Shown: positions 19,762 through 28,466, counted from the first letter of the stretch. The stretch is 64,000 nt of DNA from Pseudogymnoascus verrucosus (GCA_001662655.1 KV460209.1); one strand, 5' to 3'. Translations and numbers: made by a program. The notes: generated by a model from the sequence alone, not told the origin.

Positions 19762-20989
19762 TTGGGGAGGGAAATGAGGAAGTTATTGACCCCATCGGAG
19801 ATGTTTGGAGTAATGACTCAACTCTTCGTATGCGCCGTATTTCTGGGGGGCAAGCTACCTGGTCAACCCCGCTGATTGGCAATTTGGGGTCCACATTTGA
19901 AGAGTCACGTGATGTTTCGGGTTATGTGCAGTAGCTCCTTGGCCACCTCTGGACTCTAATTTGGTTTCGTTTGAAGGAAGCTTAGGATTGACATGAAAGC
20001 AAATGCCGAAGCTTACAGTATTTTACAGTAGTAGGTTGAAGGAGCTGCGCGATGGATTGGATATTGACGTAAAATGTAGTCTTACAGAGAAGCTATGTAA
20101 GCAACACAGGAACACCGCGCCGAAAAGATATGAGTGCATCTGAAATTCGTTGCACAGCCTCCACAGGTTCAATGTCCGATCCCCGACATCTCCTCTGGAG
20201 CCAATCCCGGCCTGACAGCAGGACCAAGCATTACCTCAAACACGATCGACAGTGTCAGCGCTTCTGGCCCGGATGTCATGTTTGCCGTGACAGCACCTGC
20301 TAATTACAGAACAGCATGGCGCCATAACACTTGCCGTGACAGAGTACTGCCGTAGCCAGGACCATTGACTATGGTCATACTGCACCATGCTGCACCATCA
20401 GGCTGTCACTTAATGCCAAGCTGCCAATCTGACGACGGCGGCCGCCCCAACCCCCCAGTTCTACTAATTTTAGCGCCCTGATTTCCCGTTTCTCGCTGGA
20501 ATTAGCCAATCCGTGGTGCCTGGGCTAGACCCCCTATAGCCCCCGTCGGCCAAGCACTACAACTCCCGACGTCAAGTGTGCCATGATCACATCCTCAAAC
20601 CATCTGCGGACGGACGCCCACGGTGCAAAGCCTCCTAAGGGGACGGCAAGGGACATTAACTGCAGGTAGGTGAGACGAACGAGGTAAGAGCGTCGGATGT
20701 CTCCGTGTTTCTTATGTCGCCCTCTTATTGTTTCGCACGTTTCGTCTGATGTGCTGTGCGGCAAGAGAGTGCTTGGTTCCTCCCTGCGCCTCCAACAGCT
20801 CCAGAGATATATAAGAAGCCATCTCAACACCCTCAAACTCTCTCAAACTCGCTCAAACACTTCAGTCTATTCTTCTTCGTCAATAATTTGCTGTGCAAAC
20901 AAAACATTCACTACATTCTTACCTTAATAAACATTTTACCAACCACCCACCAATCAACCTTCACCCAATCAACTTCCACCACCTTCAAC

Positions 20990-21730
20990 ATGCATTTCTC
21001 CGCAGCAGCCATCCTCCCCTTCCTCTCCGTCGCTGCCGCGCAGTACGGTTCCTCCGACTACGGCTCCTCCTCCACCGACACCACCAGCAACGCCCAAGCC
21101 GCCACCGACACCACCACCACCACCGCCGACGGCGCCACCGTGCACAAAGTCCTCGTCGGCCAAACCGCCCTCACCTTCTCCCCCTGGAACCTCACCGCCG
21201 CCGTTGGCGACAAGGTTGAGTTCCACTTCTACCCCACCACCCACTCCGTCGCACAAGCCGCCTTCGACAAGCCCTGCGAGCCCAGCTCCGACACCGCCTT
21301 CTTCTCCGGCGGCGTCACTACCCAGGCTGCTACGAGCGGAAAGACCAGGCGCCAGACCGCTGCGGATATGAAGATCTTCACCATCACCGTCAACGACACA
21401 AAGCCCATCTGGTACTACTGTGGCTTCCCCAACCATTGCCAGGGCGGCATGGTCGGTGTCATCAACCAGGCTGCGACGGGCGCGAAGACCATTGAGGCGT
21501 TTGCGGCGGCTGCGAAGAAGGTGGCTAAGACTGTTGCGCCTTCCACGGTGCAGGGTGGTACTTGGGGAGCTGCGGAGGTGGCGAACGGTACCGAGACTGG
21601 TGGTGCTTCGACCCCGTCTTCGTCGACTGGTGCCGCTTCTGGCCTGATGGAGAGGGGTAGCTACGGAACTGTTGTGGCTGCTGGGCTTGTGGCAGGGCTT
21701 GCCGGGATTTTCGGTACTCTGTTGGTTTAA
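20990..21730 (+). CDS. Secreted, probably GPI-anchored cupredoxin-domain Ser/Thr-rich protein
   Basis: Signal peptide MHFSAAAILPFLSVAAAQ; type-1 Cu ligands HSV and WYYCGFPNHCQGGMVGVIN; hydrophobic C-terminal tail. Confidence 0.88.
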   Translation: MHFSAAAILPFLSVAAAQYGSSDYGSSSTDTTSNAQAATDTTTTTADGATVHKVLVGQTALTFSPWNLTAAVGDKVEFHFYPTTHSVAQAAFDKPCEPSSDTAFFSGGVTTQAATSGKTRRQTAADMKIFTITVNDTKPIWYYCGFPNHCQGGMVGVINQAATGAKTIEAFAAAAKKVAKTVAPSTVQGGTWGAAEVANGTETGGASTPSSSTGAASGLMERGSYGTVVAAGLVAGLAGIFGTLLV

Positions 21731-22192: not shown

Positions 22193-24344
22193 CTACGCAC
22201 CAACGCCTTCGATCCGCCGTCTCTCCAACAAGCACGGTGATCGCCGATCTTCTTCCGAGTACGCCCTCAACAGTTCATACCCCGACTCGGGACATATAGC
22301 CGTCCCATCCATGACCGCTACCGCGCGGCGTCCTTTCCCTAAATACGCCGGGACGTTTCTTATACCTGCAAACGGTAACTCATTCAGGCATAGCCATTCA
22401 ATGGTGAATTGCCTATTTGATCTCAGGATTAGTGACCTGAAGAAAGCGGGTGAGAACTGTCTGTTAACACTCACCCTTGGTACTCTCTCCCATCTTCTCT
22501 GGGCAACCAATCTTCGCTTGTGGTGTCCCAATCCATGGGACTCGTCATTCTAGCAACGCCGCAGAACTTTTGACTGTTTGAGTTCTATTAGTGGGTGTAT
22601 GATTATGATAACAGGACAGTGGATGAGGCACCTTCTAACTATTGAAAAGAAAATTATGACGTTGCCACCAGACCTCCTGTAACCGTTGTCGAGTCTCGTA
22701 TTCGCATCTTTCATAGCGGACCACTGCCCAAGTGCAAAGCTGGTTTCCATATCTGTTTCATTGTCTGACCGCAGGACAAAGTACTTAGTCTATAAGAGAG
22801 GGATCTGATGTTAGATTATGCGCTAGCCTTTGTGCTTGATACGAAGAAGCTAACCTTGTCAAACGAAAGATCTCGAAATGATAATGCTAGAAGACTGGGG
22901 TCGAAAGGCCGGCCTTCATAAGTGTCAATGACAGTATTATCCGTACCTAGAGTACTAGTTGAACTCTGCGTGCCCTGTGAACTGCGAGAGCCTTGTGTGC
23001 TCTGGCTGCCTCTTGTACTACGAGAACCGCTCGTACTACTACGAGAACCGCTTGTAAGCCGCAGGTTTCCAAAGGTCGACCAAGATAGTAATGGCATGGG
23101 TGAAGATGCGTCAATATCATGGCGTTGGGATGGAATGACTTCATCCTGAACAGAGAGCCTGTGTCTTGATTAGCATCAAACAGGGTGCCAGGGCAGTCAA
23201 TGGACACGCACAAATTCTCTCGTTCCAGAAGAAGCCCCACATCCGCAAACCATGAATGTGAAATAGCTGCCTCTGCTGTTGGTCGATGTATCGGATTTGG
23301 GATTAACAAGAGTTTGATGAAATCTTGACAAGGTTTTGAGATGTTCATGCCCGGTGGTTCGTCAAACCTGAGCGGTTTGATCCCTCGGGTATAATCTTCT
23401 TGATCAGAGCTATAGAGGAACGGATGGGTTAGCAGTAGTTCCATTGTGATCACCCCAATGGCCCAAATATCGACAGATATTGAATACACAGAAATACTGT
23501 GGCTACTTCTAAAGTGACCTTTCAGCTCGGGTGCCATGTATTCGGTGGTACCGAGCTGTGTTTGCAACTGCGTTCCTTCGTGACATTGCTTGCTAATGCC
23601 AAAGTCCGCAATTTTGACAAGCCAGGGGGATGTGGATACTACTAGGATGTTCTATGTTGCAATGAGTGAGTAGACTCAATATCATAAACAGATTACTTAC
23701 CCCTGGCTTCAAATCCCTATGAGCAAAGTTGATCTCGTGCATGAATTTTATCCCCTCAAGAACCTGTCGCGCAACAAGCCCGGTTGTTTTCTCAGGAAAG
23801 GGTCCCTCACGATTTCTAATACGTGCTAAATCTCCAAGTCGACAGTACTCCATCGTGATAAATACAGACTCTGTATTTTCAAACCATCCATAGCTTTGAA
23901 TAAAAAAGTGCTCATACTAAATAGTTAGCCATCCTCTTCTCAAGAAAAAGACCTACCCCGACTTACTTGAGCCTGTGAAAAGTTTGCAACGGCCTGAACT
24001 TCTTTCATATAATCTGGGGTGCTTAATTTTCTGATCTCCTTCACTGCTCGAACTTGGTTTTGGGAAGACTGGGTTGGGTCCGAGATCAGTGGTCGACGTC
24101 GCTCAAACCTCACAATTCCGAAGGAGCCTTGGCCGATGATCGAACCAGGTTCAATATCCCATATTTCTTCAATATCAATGAATAAGTTTTCCTCGGTTTC
24201 CATCGATGACTCTTCCTCAATTCGGGCGAGAGTTTCTCCAGATTTCTTCTTAGGGACGCGTCGCATGTGCTTAACGCCTCCAGCAATAAATTCTGCGTCC
24301 AACCTCAGAGCTGCGACGAGGTCTGAAGTGTCCTCCATTATCAT
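22193..24344 (-). CDS. Ser/Thr protein kinase fused to a C-terminal YTH domain (predicted 7 exons, ~604 aa)
   Basis: Exons 24344-23967, 23916-23701, 23651-23212, 23158-22855, 22789-22632, 22573-22475, 22412-22193 join in frame (1815 nt). Kinase: GQGSFG, RAVKEI, HRDLKPGN, DFG, GTTEYMAPE, DIWAIG. YTH: KYFVLRSDNETDMETSFALGQWS...LDNGYRRSGGNVIIFFSIVRSQKFCGVARMTSPMDW...W...YQGQFTIEWLCLNELPF...DGTAICPESGYELL. Confidence 0.8.
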
Positions 24345-24918
24345 ATCATGCTCAACCTTTTGTATGTTGAGATATATAACTGTGAATATGGTGCCTGTGT
24401 GTCTGTGCCTCGATGCATTGAGAGTTCCGAAAAGATGTTTTCCAAGGAAAATGAACTTGAAAAGGCCGGTGACTATTTTCCTCTTTGAAGTGCATGGACG
24501 AGGAAAGATTAACTTAGATTGACTGCTTAAAGTGCCGCATTATATCCATCGTTACTGATTGTTGGATGTCGCGAATATAAACTCTTTCGGCGGTATGGTT
24601 GATTCCAAGAAGAACAAACAAGGAGTCAGGTCCTAAACTAGACTTTTTGGGGGAAAGAATGGCATGAATTCGCTATTTGAGGCCGCCATGACAGCGTGGC
24701 AGCACAGTTCATATCTTGTGCAGTATAGTACATAGCCGAAATGTGGCTGCGTTGGCGTGGGGGCAGTGTCGACACATCGAAACACAGCCTCGCCACGGGC
24801 AGAAATGAAAGGTCGTCAGGTCTGCCTCGTCGCGCTCAATATCCTGATAAGGTGAGCAACTCCTTGCGCGGCGAAAGATATTTCAATTTTCCGATTGTTA
24901 TGACGAGTGCGGGTTACT
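24345..24918. promoter_or_regulatory. Putative bidirectional promoter between the kinase-YTH and HeLo-like/pseudokinase genes
   Basis: 574 bp between two divergent predicted start codons; TATA-like GATATATAA (~24371) and AATATAAA (~24574). Function is inferred from position only. Confidence 0.5.
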
Positions 24919-26597
24919 ATGGCCGAACTAGGACTTGCAGTCGTGGGGGCCGTGGATATTTGCATTAGGTGAGTTTGTGTGGACAGAGGATGCCGATGAG
25001 TTACTTGAGCTTGTGCTAACATGCACTTAGAGTTGCCAATGAAATAAAAACCACTTGTCGACGATTCAGAATGTATGACGAGGAAATTGAAGAGAAGGCT
25101 ATTTTGGTAGAGGCTGTCTGGGTTAGAATCGAGATACAAATGCGATTCCTCTCCAGAATTTCCGAGCTGCTCGAGGAGGAGCTCGCAAATAGCCAGTTAA
25201 ACTTGCTGCGAAAGCTTGAAGGCAAATTGCTTCAAACCGTTTCCCAACTTAGAGTGCAGAAGCGGGATGGCGATGTTAACGACTTTTCGCCAAAGCAGAA
25301 GATCATGGGCTATCTAAGCAAATGGAGGTGGGCAATCAGGGATAGCCTAAAAGAACTGGCGGCTGAGCTTGAAGCATGGCAGAACCGGTTCGATCCAACC
25401 TGGTATTTGACAATACTCAACAGCAGCAAGGTTCTAGACCTTGAGCTTCGACAAGTGAATGCAGAGTTACCAAACGATCCAGAACTCCGACTCGACTTGC
25501 TAAATAACCAGTTGAACCCACTTATGAACATGCGGAACCTTCGTTACGCGTCAAAGCCGGACTATAAAGCCAGCCTCTACTTCGATGCAACTAAGCTCAG
25601 GGACCCGAGAGAGACCCTGATCATGTTCTCATCTGCTAGAGCAATCCTGCGAGAACAAGATGGGCAAACCAGGCTCCTAATTGTGGAGGCTGTGACGTCT
25701 CCGAATGGAGGCCATGGAACACTTGACATTAGTCAGATTAAGACTGATGTGGAATCATTAGCGGGAAGGCTTCAGCAAGTCGATCCAGGCACATTTTGTC
25801 TACTCCATTGCAAAGGCCTCATGGAGCTCCGAGATGTTACGACTCGAACCCTCAACGGGATTGATATGCTGTATGGCACGCCTAGAAACTGCGCATTACC
25901 TGTTAGCCTTCGTGGACTTCTCCTTGACAGAAGCCTCGTCCCAAGTCTCAGCTCCATTGTCCGGATTGCAAAGCGACAGGTTCGCTCGGTGAGCTTCATT
26001 CACACTTGTGGCTTTGTACATAAGAACATCCGGCCCGAAAACATCTTGGTATTTCCAAGCAAAGACTCGTCGCTAGGTATAACTTTTCTTGTTGGCTTCA
26101 ACCAGTTTCGGCGTGTGAATCAACAAACCAACCTACTGGGAGATCCAGCCTGGCATCGAAATTTATACCGTCATCCTCAACGCCAAGGAATACACGTTTT
26201 GAACCGCTATGTCATGCAACATGACATCTACAGCCTTGGTGTTTGTCTCCTAGAGATTGGGCTATGGCGGTCATTTGTCCACTATCCACTACTGAATATG
26301 AACGCCGCACCAGTTCCACCAGCGTCATTCGAAATTCAGATTAGCGATGAAGACTTCACAGCCCCCCATTTGACTGCTCGATTACGCACCAAAGACCGGT
26401 TCATTGAATTGGCGAAGAGGGATCTTCCGTCAAGAGTCGGGAATGTGTATACTGAAATCGTCCTTGCGTGTCTAACGTGTCTTGATCCAGGAAGTAGAAT
26501 GTTTGGGAATAATAATCAAGAAGATGAAGATGGAATTATCGTCGGAATTAGATTTATAGAGCAGATACTAGCTAGGATCGACAGCATATCAATCTAA
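24919..26597 (+). CDS. HeLo-like (HET-s/prion-inhibition type) N-terminal domain plus degenerate kinase-like domain (~538 aa)
   Basis: Exon 1 24919-24968 (MAELGLAVVGAVDICI), intron GTGAGT...GCTAAC...TAG 24969-25030, exon 2 25031-26597. Helical N-terminus ...LEAWQNRFDPTW; kinase-like part has FVHKNIRPENILVF, FLVGFNQFR, NLYRHPQRQG and HDIYSLGVCLLEIGLW. Confidence 0.8.
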
Positions 26598-28010
26598 TGA
26601 CGAAGATTAGTTAGTGGAATCTGTAGACCCTAATTGTCCTCGGGACGCTGCTTCCTAAACGATAGGATGCAAAGAGGTTTCTTGGGTAAGGGTTTAACTT
26701 CACAGAGGAGGCAGGGGATAAGACACAAAGGGTTCAAATAACACATTGCAGCATATAACAAATAATATATTCAGTTGAACACGAAACTCCTATCTAAAAA
26801 CCAAGTTTCTACTTAAATATTGGCGTCATGCTAAACGGATATATGGATAGCAATGGATATTATAATATATCCTTATATCCTACATATCTAACGACTCCCT
26901 CGACCCTGTTGGGGCCCCAACCCACGGAGCGCCAAATCAAAACCACTCTCTGTCTCTTGTACCGGAGTCCCGAGATATGTAGATCTGTGGTATGTAGATC
27001 TCCCGTATTCGTTGATAATTGGCGTTATCTAACTGCATGCTAACTAGAACATCGACAATTTGAAAATCGCGTACCGGAGTACCGAGAAGTGCACTACGGG
27101 CAATCATTACGAGCGGTATGTCTAGCATGATGGATGATCGAACGTTTATAATAATAGTTATGCATACAGCTGCTATATACAATTGGCTAGTTCCACTGTC
27201 CCCAAAATCTGTGGTGAGAGTAGATCTCTCGTATTCAGTTGATAATCACCGTCATCAGACTGCATGCTAATCTGACTTTGCCTCAAAAGGAAGCTAGGGA
27301 TCGGGCGTTGGTAGCTTGTGTTTATATACGATTAAGATCGTCTTTGTCTCATAACAAGCTAAGCCATGATCACCTTTGGCTTTCCCTTACTCATGGTGCC
27401 TTGACACTGCGGGTGGCTTATACGGCATTGTGGACCTTGCAGAAATCCCCGCGAGACATAAGCATAAGTAGAAGAGATAGTGGAGCAGAGCATAAACGGC
27501 GTAGTTTTTATACAGAATGCCAATTCGAAATGTACTACTCACATATTATTTATGAGGCAATCTACTTACCCAGCGTTACTAAGGGCCTGAGCCTGACCTG
27601 AAGTCCTGGACCCGCCTGTGAGATTCCACCTCAGTGCTGCTTAAGATCACTAACCCGCTGACGTTCTCACTGCCTCATAAAGCCCATCGAGTGCACCATG
27701 CATTGCAAGTTGCTCCAGTTATTCTAATGATACCAAGGCTGCACTGCCGGCTGAGGTCAGATTCACAATTTAGTTGCTTGCCGTTTAGTTATTCAAACGC
27801 TTCTCAGTCCTTGGCGTCGATCGATAGCTCGGCCCCTACCTTCGATAATTGTAGCCAAAAATGTGATATAAAAGCAGGCTATTGTCCTCGCTATAATCAT
27901 CTTCACTACTCTATCGACATCTTCCACATCTACTTCCTCGATATACAATCTCCTTCGATTCTCTCACAGGACCAATATCTCTGTTACCTTAGAATATCAC
28001 AACCGCCATC

Positions 28011-28466
28011 ATGCAACTCTCAACGACCATTCTCGACTTTCTGCTTGTCGCTGCCAGCACTGTTTCTGGCGCCGCAATCGAATCTGACGCCGCAATCGAA
28101 CTCGATTCCCGTGGTCTTGGGATCAACTGCCGAGGCAGCACGCTCTGCAGTGGCGCGGGGTCTCTAAAAGACATCGCCGACAATGTCGCGAAGATCTCGC
28201 AAGATCGTTGGTACAACGCTGGCGAGCTGATTGCCTGTGTGCAAGATTTGGCAGGCTCGGGCAAGTGCGCCTTTTTGCAGGGTAACACCGGAGGATTGCC
28301 GGGAAGTGACATCCTGCCTCTGATCCATTATCTTCAGCAACACGGCTGCGGTGGATGCGGTAGTGTCCCGATCTACTTTGGTCAGGGAGATAACAACCCA
28401 GACACCCACGGCATTCTCACCGTCAACTACAAGAGGAACACCCAGGGATGCAACGGCGCCTGCTGA
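28011..28466 (+). CDS. Secreted KP4 killer-toxin-like protein
   Basis: Signal/pro-peptide, then LGINCRGSxxC, ...HGCGGCGSVP...GILTVNY, the hallmark motifs of Ustilago maydis virus KP4 and fungal KP4-like proteins; TATA-like GATATAAAA ~145 bp upstream. Confidence 0.92.
   Translation: MQLSTTILDFLLVAASTVSGAAIESDAAIELDSRGLGINCRGSTLCSGAGSLKDIADNVAKISQDRWYNAGELIACVQDLAGSGKCAFLQGNTGGLPGSDILPLIHYLQQHGCGGCGSVPIYFGQGDNNPDTHGILTVNYKRNTQGCNGAC

Follow-up and report, generated by a model that had tools for sequence, protein, structure and literature searches.

A divergent kinase-YTH and helical bundle-pseudokinase gene pair as a candidate sensor-kinase/executioner module in Pseudogymnoascus verrucosus

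In a 64,000-nucleotide stretch of Pseudogymnoascus verrucosus DNA (GCA_001662655.1 KV460209.1), here termed the window, two genes diverge from a short spacer. One encodes a Ser/Thr kinase fused to a YTH domain, and the other a predicted N-terminal helical bundle followed by a kinase fold without its catalytic residues. Relatives of the two genes are found side by side in many fungi and have diversified together. The pair is tentatively read here as a RIPK3/MLKL-like module of sensor kinase and executioner, triggered by phosphorylation, a reading that we regard as possible and fall a little short of calling probable. If true, it would represent a fungal cell-death switch that is triggered by phosphorylation and equipped with a sensor kinase reading an RNA mark. 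In a literature search, no published description was found either of the kinase/pseudokinase pairing or of the kinase-YTH fusion.

Gene structures and conserved linkage

The two genes and the spacer between them are arranged as follows.

22193..24344, minus strand: gene 1, the kinase-YTH fusion, in 7 exons; its spliced translation is the database protein P0121
24338-23967, 23916-23701, 23651-23212, 23158-22855, 22789-22632, 22573-22475 and 22412-22193, minus strand: the exons of gene 1
24345..24918, no strand: divergent spacer of 574 bp, presumed bidirectional promoter
24919..26597, plus strand: gene 2, helical bundle and pseudokinase, 538 aa; exons 24919-24968 and 25031-26597

The six introns of gene 1 are all of the GT..AG type and are 49-65 nt long. 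Translation from the ATG at 24338 gives 602 aa, and an in-frame ATG two codons upstream, at 24344, gives 604 aa; the spacer measures 574 bp from the latter and 580 bp from the start of P0121. This database protein (602 aa, annotated as hypothetical in Pseudogymnoascus sp. VKM F-103) matches the spliced translation letter for letter. Gene 2 carries a single GT..AG intron of 62 nt (24969-25030), and its product is identical to P0001 at 496 of 538 residues (92%). The exon/intron structures and these two protein matches confirm the initial annotation, which had described two intact reading frames diverging from a 574-bp spacer. The flanking genes are ordinary, with ESF1, a Na/Ca exchanger and a GNAT gene on one side, and a KP4-like gene and IML1 on the other.

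Of 8000 scored candidates, 1755 match the family of gene 2 at E <= 0.001. This family is patchy among fungi and has several paralogues per genome, such as P0018 and P0101 in Xylariaceae sp. FL1651. Of 40 distinct metagenome loci whose flanks are long enough, 31 have a kinase gene placed head-to-head with the pseudokinase homologue at a distance of no more than 2.5 kb. Counting any orientation, 32 of the 40 have an upstream kinase. The downstream flanks, taken as the control, have one in 2 of 37, and the background, from another 432 kb of flank, is 0.017 kinase genes per 2.5 kb. The pseudokinase match and the nearest kinase match at the 31 loci are 493-1614 bp apart (median 794). Similarly, adjacent locus tags for both genes are seen in six named genomes. 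With 120 gene 2 homologues listed, 24 of 40 kinase-YTH proteins share organism and apparent contig with one of them, five with adjacent locus tags. Matching gene numbers, 700980 and 700990, recur in sister species of Podospora, and in Lecanicillium the adjacent tag belongs to a kinase without YTH. The two gene trees are congruent (patristic-distance r = 0.887, Mantel 0/2000), also when the 22 non-YTH rows are taken alone (r = 0.70, 0/2000). The pairing is not due to chance, and the two genes have co-diversified while keeping their head-to-head linkage. Recurrent divergent pairing, which the initial annotation had put forward as a check, is borne out by flanks, locus tags and trees alike.

Domain composition of the two proteins

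Three segments can be recognised in the product of gene 1.

23247..24161, minus strand: Ser/Thr kinase domain, CAMK-like and predicted active (about residues 60-331, exons 1-3; Pfam and conserved motifs)
22855..23158, minus strand: Ser/Thr-rich low-complexity linker from kinase to YTH (exon 4)
22193..22789, minus strand: YTH domain and C-terminal tail including the stop codon (exons 5-7, from residue 445)

The Pfam family Pkinase was found by single-exon searches on exons 2 and 3 (E 8.5e-16 and 1.6e-26), and the precomputed Pfam record of the whole protein P0121 holds PF00069 as well as PF04146. The G-loop (G69/G71/G74), K100, H190-R191-D192, D212-F213-G214 and A236-P237-E238 are invariant or nearly so in 34 relatives. 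The nearest solved kinases are Rad53, STK17A/B (DRAK), CDPK, CaMK1 and DAPK, at E 1e-31 to 1e-23. Judged by its motifs and relatives, the domain is a CAMK-like kinase with the full set of catalytic motifs. All 60 of the best solved relatives are CAMK-like or related, and RIPK is absent among them. A RIPK/TKL-type identity was therefore rejected, the best solved relatives being CAMK-like.

Pfam detected YTH on three exon pieces of gene 1 (E 3.9e-10, 2.6e-4 and 2.2e-4), which cover profile positions 1-50, 53-77 and 84-133 of 135. Pieces two and three score 21.2 and 21.4 bits, slightly below the cut-off of 22.1, because the domain is divided over three exons. Among solved YTH proteins (phmmer), YTHDF1/2 are the best matches (E 2.6e-14 for YTHDF1), followed by Pho92 (4rcm; 2.4e-13) and Mmi1 (6.5e-6). 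Three tryptophans of YTHDF1, which we take to be its m6A-cage residues, have W467, W519 and Y528 as their counterparts in the alignment. In the 34 relatives W467 is nearly invariant and W519 invariant, and the third position is W in most. The description of this protein as a kinase with all catalytic motifs plus a YTH domain is thus upheld by both Pfam families and by the conservation of the motifs. No family was found by a Pfam search of the exon 4 linker, which is of variable length among relatives, yet retains short conserved motifs. A related strain has an in-frame 3-nt deletion in it, at 23034.

The segments and motifs of gene 2 are the following, with conservation counted in an alignment of 35 relatives.

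24919..25388, plus strand: predicted N-terminal four-helix bundle, with a hydrophobic first helix (residues 1-136; spans the intron 24969-25030)
25389..25592, plus strand: linker, for which AF2 predicts two helices (150-162 and 180-190) where MLKL has its brace
25593..26594, plus strand: pseudokinase domain (about residues 205-538; AF2 kinase fold)
26019..26027, plus strand: H347-K348-N349 replacing HRD, with catalytic Asp changed to Asn (H 34/35, K 35/35, N 31/35)
26094..26102, plus strand: G372-F373-N374 replacing DFG (G 35/35, F 30/35; third position N in 12, D in 9, T in 7, S in 7)
26127..26129, plus strand: T383 of the activation segment, candidate phospho-acceptor (T 32/35, S 2/35)

On the C-terminal part, Pfam Pkinase reaches 25 bits, under its cut-off of 31.7, and covers the C-lobe only. 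With the full model of gene 2, Foldseek finds solved kinases at E about 1e-6, and the longest alignment among the solved chains is to MLKL (4btf; 515 columns, E 2e-6, rank 47). At the beta-3 lysine position, 33 of the 35 family members have E or D. Judged from its sequence, the domain is a kinase fold without catalytic residues, that is, a pseudokinase, and its supposed lack of HRD and DFG is confirmed by HKN and GF[NDTS] in the alignment. After T383 follows the invariant motif G387-D388...W391..N394.Y396-R-H-P399.R401-Q402; in its longer form, GDxAWxRNLYRHPxRQG, 10 positions are invariant in 35/35. When the pseudokinase family profile was compared with PDB sequences, HRI, BRAF and CK1 led the 1297 matches, and MLKL was not among the best 60 of them.

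The N-terminus of gene 2 begins with a hydrophobic helix (MAELGLAVVGAVDICIR), in which A2 (26/35), E3 (28/35), L4 (30/35), L6 (28/35), D13 (23/35) and C15 (24/35) are conserved. AF2 predicts four long helices (2-29, 34-63, 66-91 and 104-136) in both the full-length and the domain-only models, with block pLDDT mostly 72-93. The expectation that this region would model as a four-helix bundle is thus borne out. The linker helices have pLDDT of about 46-79, and the brace-like helices are therefore weakly supported. In the predicted model, the order of bundle, linker helices and pseudokinase matches the layout of MLKL.

The relation of this bundle to HeLo domains was approached by several methods. 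In a VIA-align structural comparison against 48,161 chains, it matched the HET-S HeLo domain 2wvo with Z 7.4 (rmsd 3.7, 125 aligned, rank 31 of 48,161), residues 2-117 of MLKL 4btf with Z 7.0 (rmsd 3.1, 100 aligned), and the CC or CC-R domains of the plant NLRs MLA13, Rx and NRG1.1 with 8.8, 8.8 and 8.5. All of these stand in the best 50 of the 48,161 chains, with scores (7.0-8.8) in the range below about 13 that the tool's own note calls common for helical bundles; generic or designed bundles outscore HET-S and MLKL (Z 10.6). With the bundle alone, Foldseek gave no HeLo or MLKL match, its best E being 0.26 (IncA and designed bundles). Neither PF14479 nor PF17111 was found at E <= 1 in any of the 35 family members, or in the precomputed Pfam of the 120 gene 2 homologues listed. 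A bundle profile searched against 1.84 billion proteins gave 692 matches. The 150 listed lie near the N-terminus, in proteins of lengths typical of the gene 2 family or in fragments, and other HeLo families are therefore not in evidence there. Against PDB sequences, the same profile returned chance-level rows only, and MLKL and HeLo were not found.

In a language-model atlas, the nearest named clusters for the bundles of P0001 and of P0113, a relative of gene 2 with 36-38% identity, are HeLo PF14479 (score 0.94, 177 features shared, and 0.93, 173 shared), followed by PF17111 and SesA. By the tool's own rules, such a likeness counts as a lead. HeLo ancestry is thus only partly supported, and membership of the family is not established. 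Of the HeLo-like N-terminus in the initial annotation, the hydrophobic helix and the predicted bundle stand as a description, but a HeLo match came from neither Pfam nor profile searches nor Foldseek.

Proposed mechanism and alternative readings

In the proposed mechanism, the two genes would form one co-inherited signalling unit that operates like RIPK3 and MLKL. Gene 1 would be the sensor kinase. Its YTH domain may bind an RNA ligand, most likely m6A-marked RNA because W467, W519 and Y528 sit at the three YTHDF1 tryptophan positions, and the CAMK-like kinase domain would become concentrated or activated once the ligand is bound. The executioner would be gene 2, with the dead kinase fold restraining an N-terminal four-helix bundle of HeLo type. 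We infer that signalling runs from kinase to pseudokinase, the partner kinase directly phosphorylating the activation segment of gene 2, with T383 as the candidate site, and thereby flipping the pseudokinase switch. The freed bundle and its hydrophobic first helix could then oligomerise and attack the membrane, with regulated death of the cell, or some related response at the membrane, as the presumed outcome. Elsewhere in fungi, paralogous pairs would share the executioner design, their kinases being equipped with different sensors (WD40, ankyrin, SH3, KA1).

The partner kinases at the 27 loci examined bear C-terminal WD40 in 8, ANK in 3, YTH in 3, SH3 in 2, KA1 in 1 and no recognised domain in 10; variable sensor domains on the kinase had been another point to check. 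The type of domain clusters on the pseudokinase tree, needing 9 changes where shuffled labels need 19.0 on average, and 0/200 shuffles went as low. The kinase C-terminal domain has been swapped between paralogous pairs. According to the review PMC12881547, fungal death effectors adjoin their activators (an NLR with HeLo/HELLP, a protease with gasdermin), and some HELL domains are found on kinase or pseudokinase proteins. Of the RIPK/MLKL-like reading first put forward, the MLKL-like layout, the recurrent pairing and the sensor variety have held, but not the nature of the kinase, which is CAMK-like and not RIPK-like. As MLKL is also missing from the 60 best PDB sequence matches of the pseudokinase profile, the likeness to necroptosis is one of design and not of shown descent.

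Some observations count against the sensor-kinase/executioner reading. CAMK kinases favour arginine at -3, which T383 lacks; in the alignment, this position 380 is N in 17, H in 6, A in 3 and S in 3. None of the sequence methods used links the bundle to HeLo, HeLo-like or MLKL. YTH-partnered pseudokinases form one strongly supported clade that spans three fungal classes at 40-70% identity, and from such sequences the pair looks more like a locus of conserved function than a fast-evolving allorecognition or immune locus. In the two rows for the pair in a supplementary table on Podospora under bacterial confrontation, induction is not seen: Pa_7_980 is without a value in four fold-change columns, and Pa_7_990 has only -1.70, at one time point. 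Apart from the missing arginine, these observations also favour a non-lethal regulatory pair, which we consider rather unlikely though worth serious attention. There, the pseudokinase would serve the kinase as a scaffold or act on it allosterically (cf. STRAD-LKB1, KSR-RAF), its helical N-terminus an oligomerisation or coiled-coil module, and YTH would take the kinase to (methylated) transcripts or RNA granules, with RNA fate, stress or development as the output. The generic bundles among the best structural matches fit it as well, and GDxAWxRNLYRHPxRQG is the strongly conserved surface motif expected of a binding face. However, the first helix of gene 2 is both hydrophobic and conserved, HeLo death domains come out closest in the language-model comparison for both a close and a distant member, and the family is patchy and multiplied into paralogues. 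Moreover, the partner kinases bear WD40 or ANK arrays, as do, according to PMC12881547, proteases controlling fungal gasdermins.

The wiring might also be reversed, although this seems improbable to us. The pseudokinase with its bundle would then be an upstream receptor or adaptor, for instance of a membrane or danger cue, that activates the kinase, and YTH, WD40 and ANK would be targeting modules choosing substrates, such as proteins on m6A-marked mRNAs. Pseudokinases often activate kinases allosterically. Linkage and co-diversification are silent on direction, and a uniform pseudokinase beside a changing kinase C-terminus also fits one input with many outputs. Yet the nearly invariant T/S in the activation segment (34/35) suits a substrate role, and in the known analogues, as far as covered in PMC12881547, the repeat arrays lie on the activating enzyme beside the executioner gene. 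Far less plausible is a shared bidirectional promoter that gives co-regulation only, the products having no direct biochemical interplay. Physical interaction of the two products is presumed, and compact fungal genomes contain many head-to-head pairs separated by short spacers; still, a kinase neighbour of the same subfamily in 31/40 loci, set against the background of 0.017 per 2.5 kb, and two trees that mirror each other through several paralogous clades are hard to explain without functional coupling.

Comparison with known systems

The proposed sensor-kinase/executioner module is closest in design to RIPK3-MLKL, including plant MLKLs. Shared with it are the N-terminal four-helix bundle, here predicted, the linker helices, here weakly modelled, and a C-terminal pseudokinase without the HRD Asp and the DFG Asp (at the DFG position, MLKL reads a degenerate G-F-x), as well as a dedicated active kinase, here the candidate activator. 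In contrast to that system, the PDB sequence comparisons above, with the 60 best matches covered for kinase and pseudokinase, detected no homology of the fungal pair to MLKL or RIPK3, its kinase is CAMK-like with the sensor (YTH, WD40, ANK) fused to the kinase itself, and its genes are adjacent and divergent, which those of RIPK3 and MLKL are not known to be. HET-S/NWD2 and HELLP/PNT1 are likewise two-gene clusters of a helical-bundle effector with a hydrophobic N-terminal helix and its activator; membrane targeting is presumed for the pair studied here, which differs in that neither an amyloid/prion-forming tail nor an NLR is apparent. Since its regulatory module is a pseudokinase and its neighbour a kinase, activation would be by phosphorylation and not by amyloid templating.

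Gasdermin-protease clusters also place an executioner gene beside its activating enzyme, and those proteases are often fused to WD40, TPR or ANK repeats (PMC12881547); WD40 or ANK is present on the partner kinases at 11 of the 27 loci examined. The executioner fold is different there, and proteolysis takes the place of the presumed phosphorylation.

By design logic, PKR and RNase L are similar, an RNA- or ligand-binding domain being fused to a kinase-fold protein; RNase L combines ankyrin repeats with a pseudokinase. Here the domain is YTH and not dsRBD, and the output would pass to a separate pseudokinase-bundle protein. Lastly, Pho92 and Mmi1 share with gene 1 the YTH fold and aromatics at the three positions aligned with the YTHDF1 tryptophans, whereas the YTH domain of gene 1 is fused to a kinase with all catalytic motifs.

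The two divergent genes and their products

Two genes of the window diverge from a spacer of 574 bp between their start codons, or 580 bp when measured from the start of P0121, the database protein equal to the gene 1 product:

22193-24344 (-): gene 1, kinase-YTH fusion; 7 exons and 6 GT..AG introns of 49-65 nt each
24919-26597 (+): gene 2, helical bundle plus pseudokinase; 538 aa, with one 62-nt intron after codon 16

The initial annotation had described this pair, its spacer and its domain make-up, and wherever these can be read from sequence they were borne out by the gene structures, the motif states, the helix model and the spacer itself. An artefact of gene modelling is ruled out, since the spliced translation of gene 1 is identical to P0121 (602 aa) and every intron is canonical. 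The products of both genes match proteins named from Pseudogymnoascus (Leotiomycetes), and that of gene 2 is 92% identical to its close homologue P0001.

In gene 1, Pfam places a protein kinase domain (Pkinase) in exons 2 and 3 (E 8.5e-16 and 1.6e-26) and a YTH domain in exons 5, 6 and 7 (E 3.9e-10, 2.6e-4 and 2.2e-4); the three YTH pieces jointly span profile positions 1-133 of 135. An alignment with 34 relatives shows little or no variation at the glycine loop, K100, H190-R191-D192, D212-F213-G214 and A236-P237-E238, and from this full set of catalytic motifs the kinase is predicted to be active. Its closest solved relatives are of the CAMK type, namely Rad53, STK17A/B, CaMK1 and the DAPKs (E 1e-31 to 1e-23), and no RIP kinase is among the nearest in the structures compared. 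For the YTH part the match is to YTHDF1/2, at E about 1e-14, and three tryptophans of YTHDF1, which we take to be the m6A-cage residues, have W467, W519 and Y528 as their counterparts in the alignment; the third of these aromatic positions is a tryptophan in most relatives.

It was also observed that a conserved peptide precedes the kinase domain (window 24263-24338, minus strand; residues 1-25 of P0121). It reads LVxASRLETEFLPGCxKH in the consensus, all 34 relatives share L13 and H24, and a role as docking motif is possible. The linker ahead of the YTH domain has conserved motifs too. A kinase-YTH protein of Verticillium longisporum (P0162, 996 aa) bears an extra cytochrome P450 annotation (PF00067) and is probably two merged gene models.

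The AlphaFold2 model of the gene 2 product, made with 35 relatives (mean pLDDT 77, pTM 0.75), has four long helices at residues 2-29, 34-63, 66-91 and 104-136, two shorter and poorly supported ones at 150-162 and 180-190, and a kinase fold that starts at about residue 205. Among the 35 family members, the HRD position reads H-K-N (N in 31), the DFG position reads G-F-x (G in all 35), the beta-3 lysine position is E or D in 33, and no glycine loop is present in the alignment. As judged from these motifs, the loss of the catalytic machinery is persistent across the relatives. T383 of the activation segment is nearly invariant (T in 32 and S in 2 of the 35), and the motif after it, GDxAWxRNLYRHPxRQG, is unusually conserved. 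Residues 1-17, MAELGLAVVGAVDICIR, are hydrophobic and conserved.

Recurrent pairing and co-diversification

The pairing was followed in named genomes through 40 proteins with both Pkinase and YTH domains. With 120 gene-2 homologues listed of 1755 matches, at least 24 of the 40 have such a homologue in the same named organism on an equal-sized contig, and five of those 24 pairs have adjacent locus tags.

Adjacent locus tags of kinase-YTH proteins and gene-2 homologues
Xylariales sp. No.14919: 060580 and 060590
Xylaria hypoxylon: g8265 and g8266
X. bambusicola: 012830 and 012829
X. multiplex: g8878 and g8879
Emericellopsis cladophorae: 001524 and 001523

In Podospora sister species, the kinase-YTH protein is 700980 and the pseudokinase 700990. 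The pseudokinase of P. anserina is PODANS_7_990, and part of a supplement gives Pa_7_980 as a putative serine/threonine kinase. Lecanicillium saksenae g4278/g4279 combines a kinase that lacks YTH with a gene-2 relative, about 38% identical.

Metagenomes were scanned with the family alignment, and the 80 loci obtained collapse to 66 groups when those of at least 95% nucleotide identity are merged. A kinase is encoded on the opposite strand within 2.5 kb upstream in 31 of the 40 groups that have at least 2 kb of upstream sequence, at a distance of 493-1614 bp from the pseudokinase (median 794); in three of the 40 the kinase is arranged differently, and six lack one. Within 2.5 kb downstream, a kinase is found in 2 of 37 groups, and the remaining 432 kb of flank holds three kinase genes (0.017 per 2.5 kb). 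Chance adjacency is ruled out by this scarcity downstream and in the background flank. The recurrence of the divergent arrangement, which the initial annotation had proposed as a test, was found in the metagenomes as well as in the adjacent tags of named genomes.

Two pairs of loci differ at the partner. L012 and L013 are 95% identical over the pseudokinase gene, and the similarity stops about 350 bp upstream; beyond the break, L012 has the partner kinase and L013 has unrelated, rearranged sequence with no kinase, which reflects either presence/absence variation or an assembly chimera. In L047 and L074, whose contigs are otherwise 93-96% identical, a segment of about 2.8 kb with the partner kinase is inverted, the breakpoint being about 270 bp upstream of the pseudokinase gene.

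Trees of the two proteins were compared for 35 pairs, 12 of them named and 23 from metagenome loci where the matches were long enough; four of the 27 annotated loci were left out for a kinase match below 200 aa or a pseudokinase match below 450 aa. The patristic distances correlate with r = 0.887 (Mantel 0/2000), and with r = 0.70 (Mantel 0/2000) in the 22 non-YTH rows alone. The 13 YTH-partnered pseudokinases make up one clade (SH-aLRT 100), and so do their kinases. Shared species history must account for part of the correlation; the same paralogous clades are seen again in both trees. The pairing of kinase and pseudokinase is therefore real, as observed in named genomes, in metagenome contigs and in co-diversification, and is a well-conserved feature. 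One locus, L072, may have exchanged its partner: its pseudokinase is a close sister of that of L054 (branches about 0.1), and its kinase, of the SH3 type, groups with those of L061 and L071, apart from the L054 kinase.

The C-termini of the partner kinases are swapped. Pfam was run on 36 long minus-strand frames past the kinase domain at 24 loci, and YTH was assigned at three further loci from tblastn matches. The resulting 27 loci carry WD40 (8), ankyrin (3), YTH (3), SH3 (2), KA1 (1) or no recognised domain (10). On the pseudokinase tree, loci with like domains group together: the type changes 9 times, compared with a mean of 19.0 after shuffling, and none of 200 shuffles gave so low a number. 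Kinase relatives in the database listing are annotated with WD40, ankyrin, BAG or ENTH, irrespective of pairing. Variable domains on the kinase had been anticipated by the initial annotation; by analogy, they may serve as sensors. The YTH pair is conserved across Leotiomycetes, Dothideomycetes and Sordariomycetes, and a protein listing alone places a kinase-YTH protein in a Lecanoromycete.

The helical bundle and a possible death switch

The N-terminus of gene 2, earlier called HeLo-like, is predicted by the model to be a bundle of four helices, the first of them hydrophobic. The bundle was folded alone (pLDDT 73) and aligned to 48,161 representative chains. Its 50 best include the CC of MLA13 (Z 8.8) and Rx (8.8), the CC-R of NRG1.1 (8.5), the HET-S HeLo domain 2wvo (Z 7.4, 125 aligned) and the MLKL 4HB (Z 7.0, chain residues 2-117); the top rows are generic or designed bundles with Z up to 10.6, and the tool itself cautions that helical bundles commonly give Z values below about 13. 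Of all solved chains, full-length MLKL (4btf) aligns with the whole model over the most columns (515, E 2e-6), at rank 47 among kinases. In an ESM Atlas feature search, a HeLo PF14479 cluster is nearest both to residues 1-195 of P0001 (0.94, 177/256 features) and to P0113, a relative 36-38% identical to P0001 (0.93, 173 features), with PF17111 and SesA clusters next.

The other searches did not return HeLo. Foldseek with the bundle alone gave no match below E 0.26, Pfam HeLo or HeLo-like matched none of the 35 family members, and the bundle profile gave chance-level rows alone against PDB sequences (E 0.2 or above). Against 1.84 billion representative proteins the profile matched 692 clusters, and the best 150 of these all look like the gene-2 family or its fragments. 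Pfam DUF7580 matches 7 of the 35 members (best E 2.2e-4); it was dropped as an identity for the bundle, as the match lies on the pseudokinase part in P0064, P0091 and P0067 (E 0.026-0.073), the three members for which it was located. The bundle probably belongs to the HeLo/MLKL/CC clan as a divergent member. Since the structural and sequence evidence is mixed, it is described here as a four-helix bundle and is not filed as a HeLo member.

A RIPK/MLKL-like death module had been proposed for the pair. A sharpened form of that proposal, set beside the observed anatomy, linkage, co-diversification and domain swapping, is that, in a family of two-gene units, a helical-bundle executioner under pseudokinase control is gated by a sensor kinase; the window's pair would be the YTH-bearing orthologue. 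We consider this the best supported of the readings, with a chance slightly short of even. The kinase would bind a ligand and switch the pseudokinase by phosphorylation, with T383 as the candidate site, and the bundle would then attack the membrane; these steps and the direction of signalling are modelled on the MLKL and HET-S precedents. Several observations count against it. No sequence link to HeLo or MLKL was found in the searches described, the gene 1 kinase is of the CAMK type, arginine is absent at -3 of T383, and two rows of a Podospora bacterial-confrontation table give no sign of induction of Pa_7_980/Pa_7_990, the orthologues in that fungus. When kinase residues 1-345 and pseudokinase residues 195-538 were modelled as a complex, two runs made without family alignments or controls scored 0.00, which speaks neither for nor against the gating.

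The retention of the YTH pair across three classes also counts against the gated executioner. Beside it stands a regulatory pair of kinase and pseudokinase that acts on RNA without being lethal, which is unlikely yet carries some weight. Even such a pair would be an unstudied, conserved and co-evolving one with exchangeable targeting domains. Reverse wiring, with the bundle-pseudokinase upstream of the kinase, would suit the same linkage and the same matching trees and is improbable; the conserved T383 would suit a pseudokinase that is the substrate. Co-regulation alone of two genes sharing a short spacer is very improbable beside the agreement of their trees. For the kinase-gated four-helix-bundle pseudokinase, where gating is suggested by analogy, a death or immune function is plausible.

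A wider reading is that filamentous ascomycetes have a family of phosphorylation-gated HeLo/MLKL-type executioners, each head-to-head with its own C-terminally swapped sensor kinase; it is offered tentatively and is rather doubtful. Modified or foreign RNA would be the input of YTH and protein ligands that of WD40 and ankyrin arrays, and SH3 and KA1 would take others. The YTH member would tie the sensing of RNA marks to cell death, for example against mycoviruses. Fungi would then have a third type of two-gene death switch, one based on phosphorylation, beside the amyloid templating of NLR with HeLo and the proteolysis of protease with gasdermin. If true, phosphorylation would join the known ways of switching on fungal executioners, and fungi would possess a death pathway running straight from kinase to pseudokinase, as at the core of necroptosis, a design arisen or retained outside animals and plants. 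It would also account for HELL-plus-kinase proteins and give a first function to a kinase-YTH fusion, linking the reading of RNA modification to innate immunity or cell fate.

HELL-plus-kinase proteins are mentioned in passing in the part consulted of a 2025 review, which also urges a broader study of HeLo/4HB proteins in fungi (PMC12881547); the executioner architecture is thus known in outline. Neither the partner kinase nor the YTH fusion is mentioned in the portions consulted of Wojciechowski et al. 2022, on MLKL-like N-termini of NLRs, of a 2023 review or of a Sordariales NLR survey. A full-text literature search, outside preprint supplements, found no description of the pair, the kinase-YTH fusion or Pa_7_980/Pa_7_990. 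What appears to be new is the dedicated partner kinase, encoded head-to-head, co-evolving with the pseudokinase and fitted with exchangeable C-terminal domains, among them YTH. As the orthologues exist in the model Podospora anserina, the pair is a compact genetic system open to testing there.

Surroundings of the pair

A contig of a related strain spans the whole stretch with 85 substitutions and two indels only. One is an in-frame 3-nt deletion at window 23034, in the Ser-rich linker of gene 1, and the other a 2-nt deletion at 24644, in the spacer; the frames of both genes are intact in that strain. Two further open reading frames lie nearby:

20750-21730 (+): Ser/Thr/Ala-rich, with a hydrophobic start and a hydrophobic tail
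27993-28466 (+): KP4 killer-toxin-like small secreted protein

The first matches no Pfam family and looks like a secreted or GPI-anchored wall protein. The second lies about 1.4 kb downstream of gene 2 and matches Pfam Kp4 (PF09044) at E 4.3e-33.
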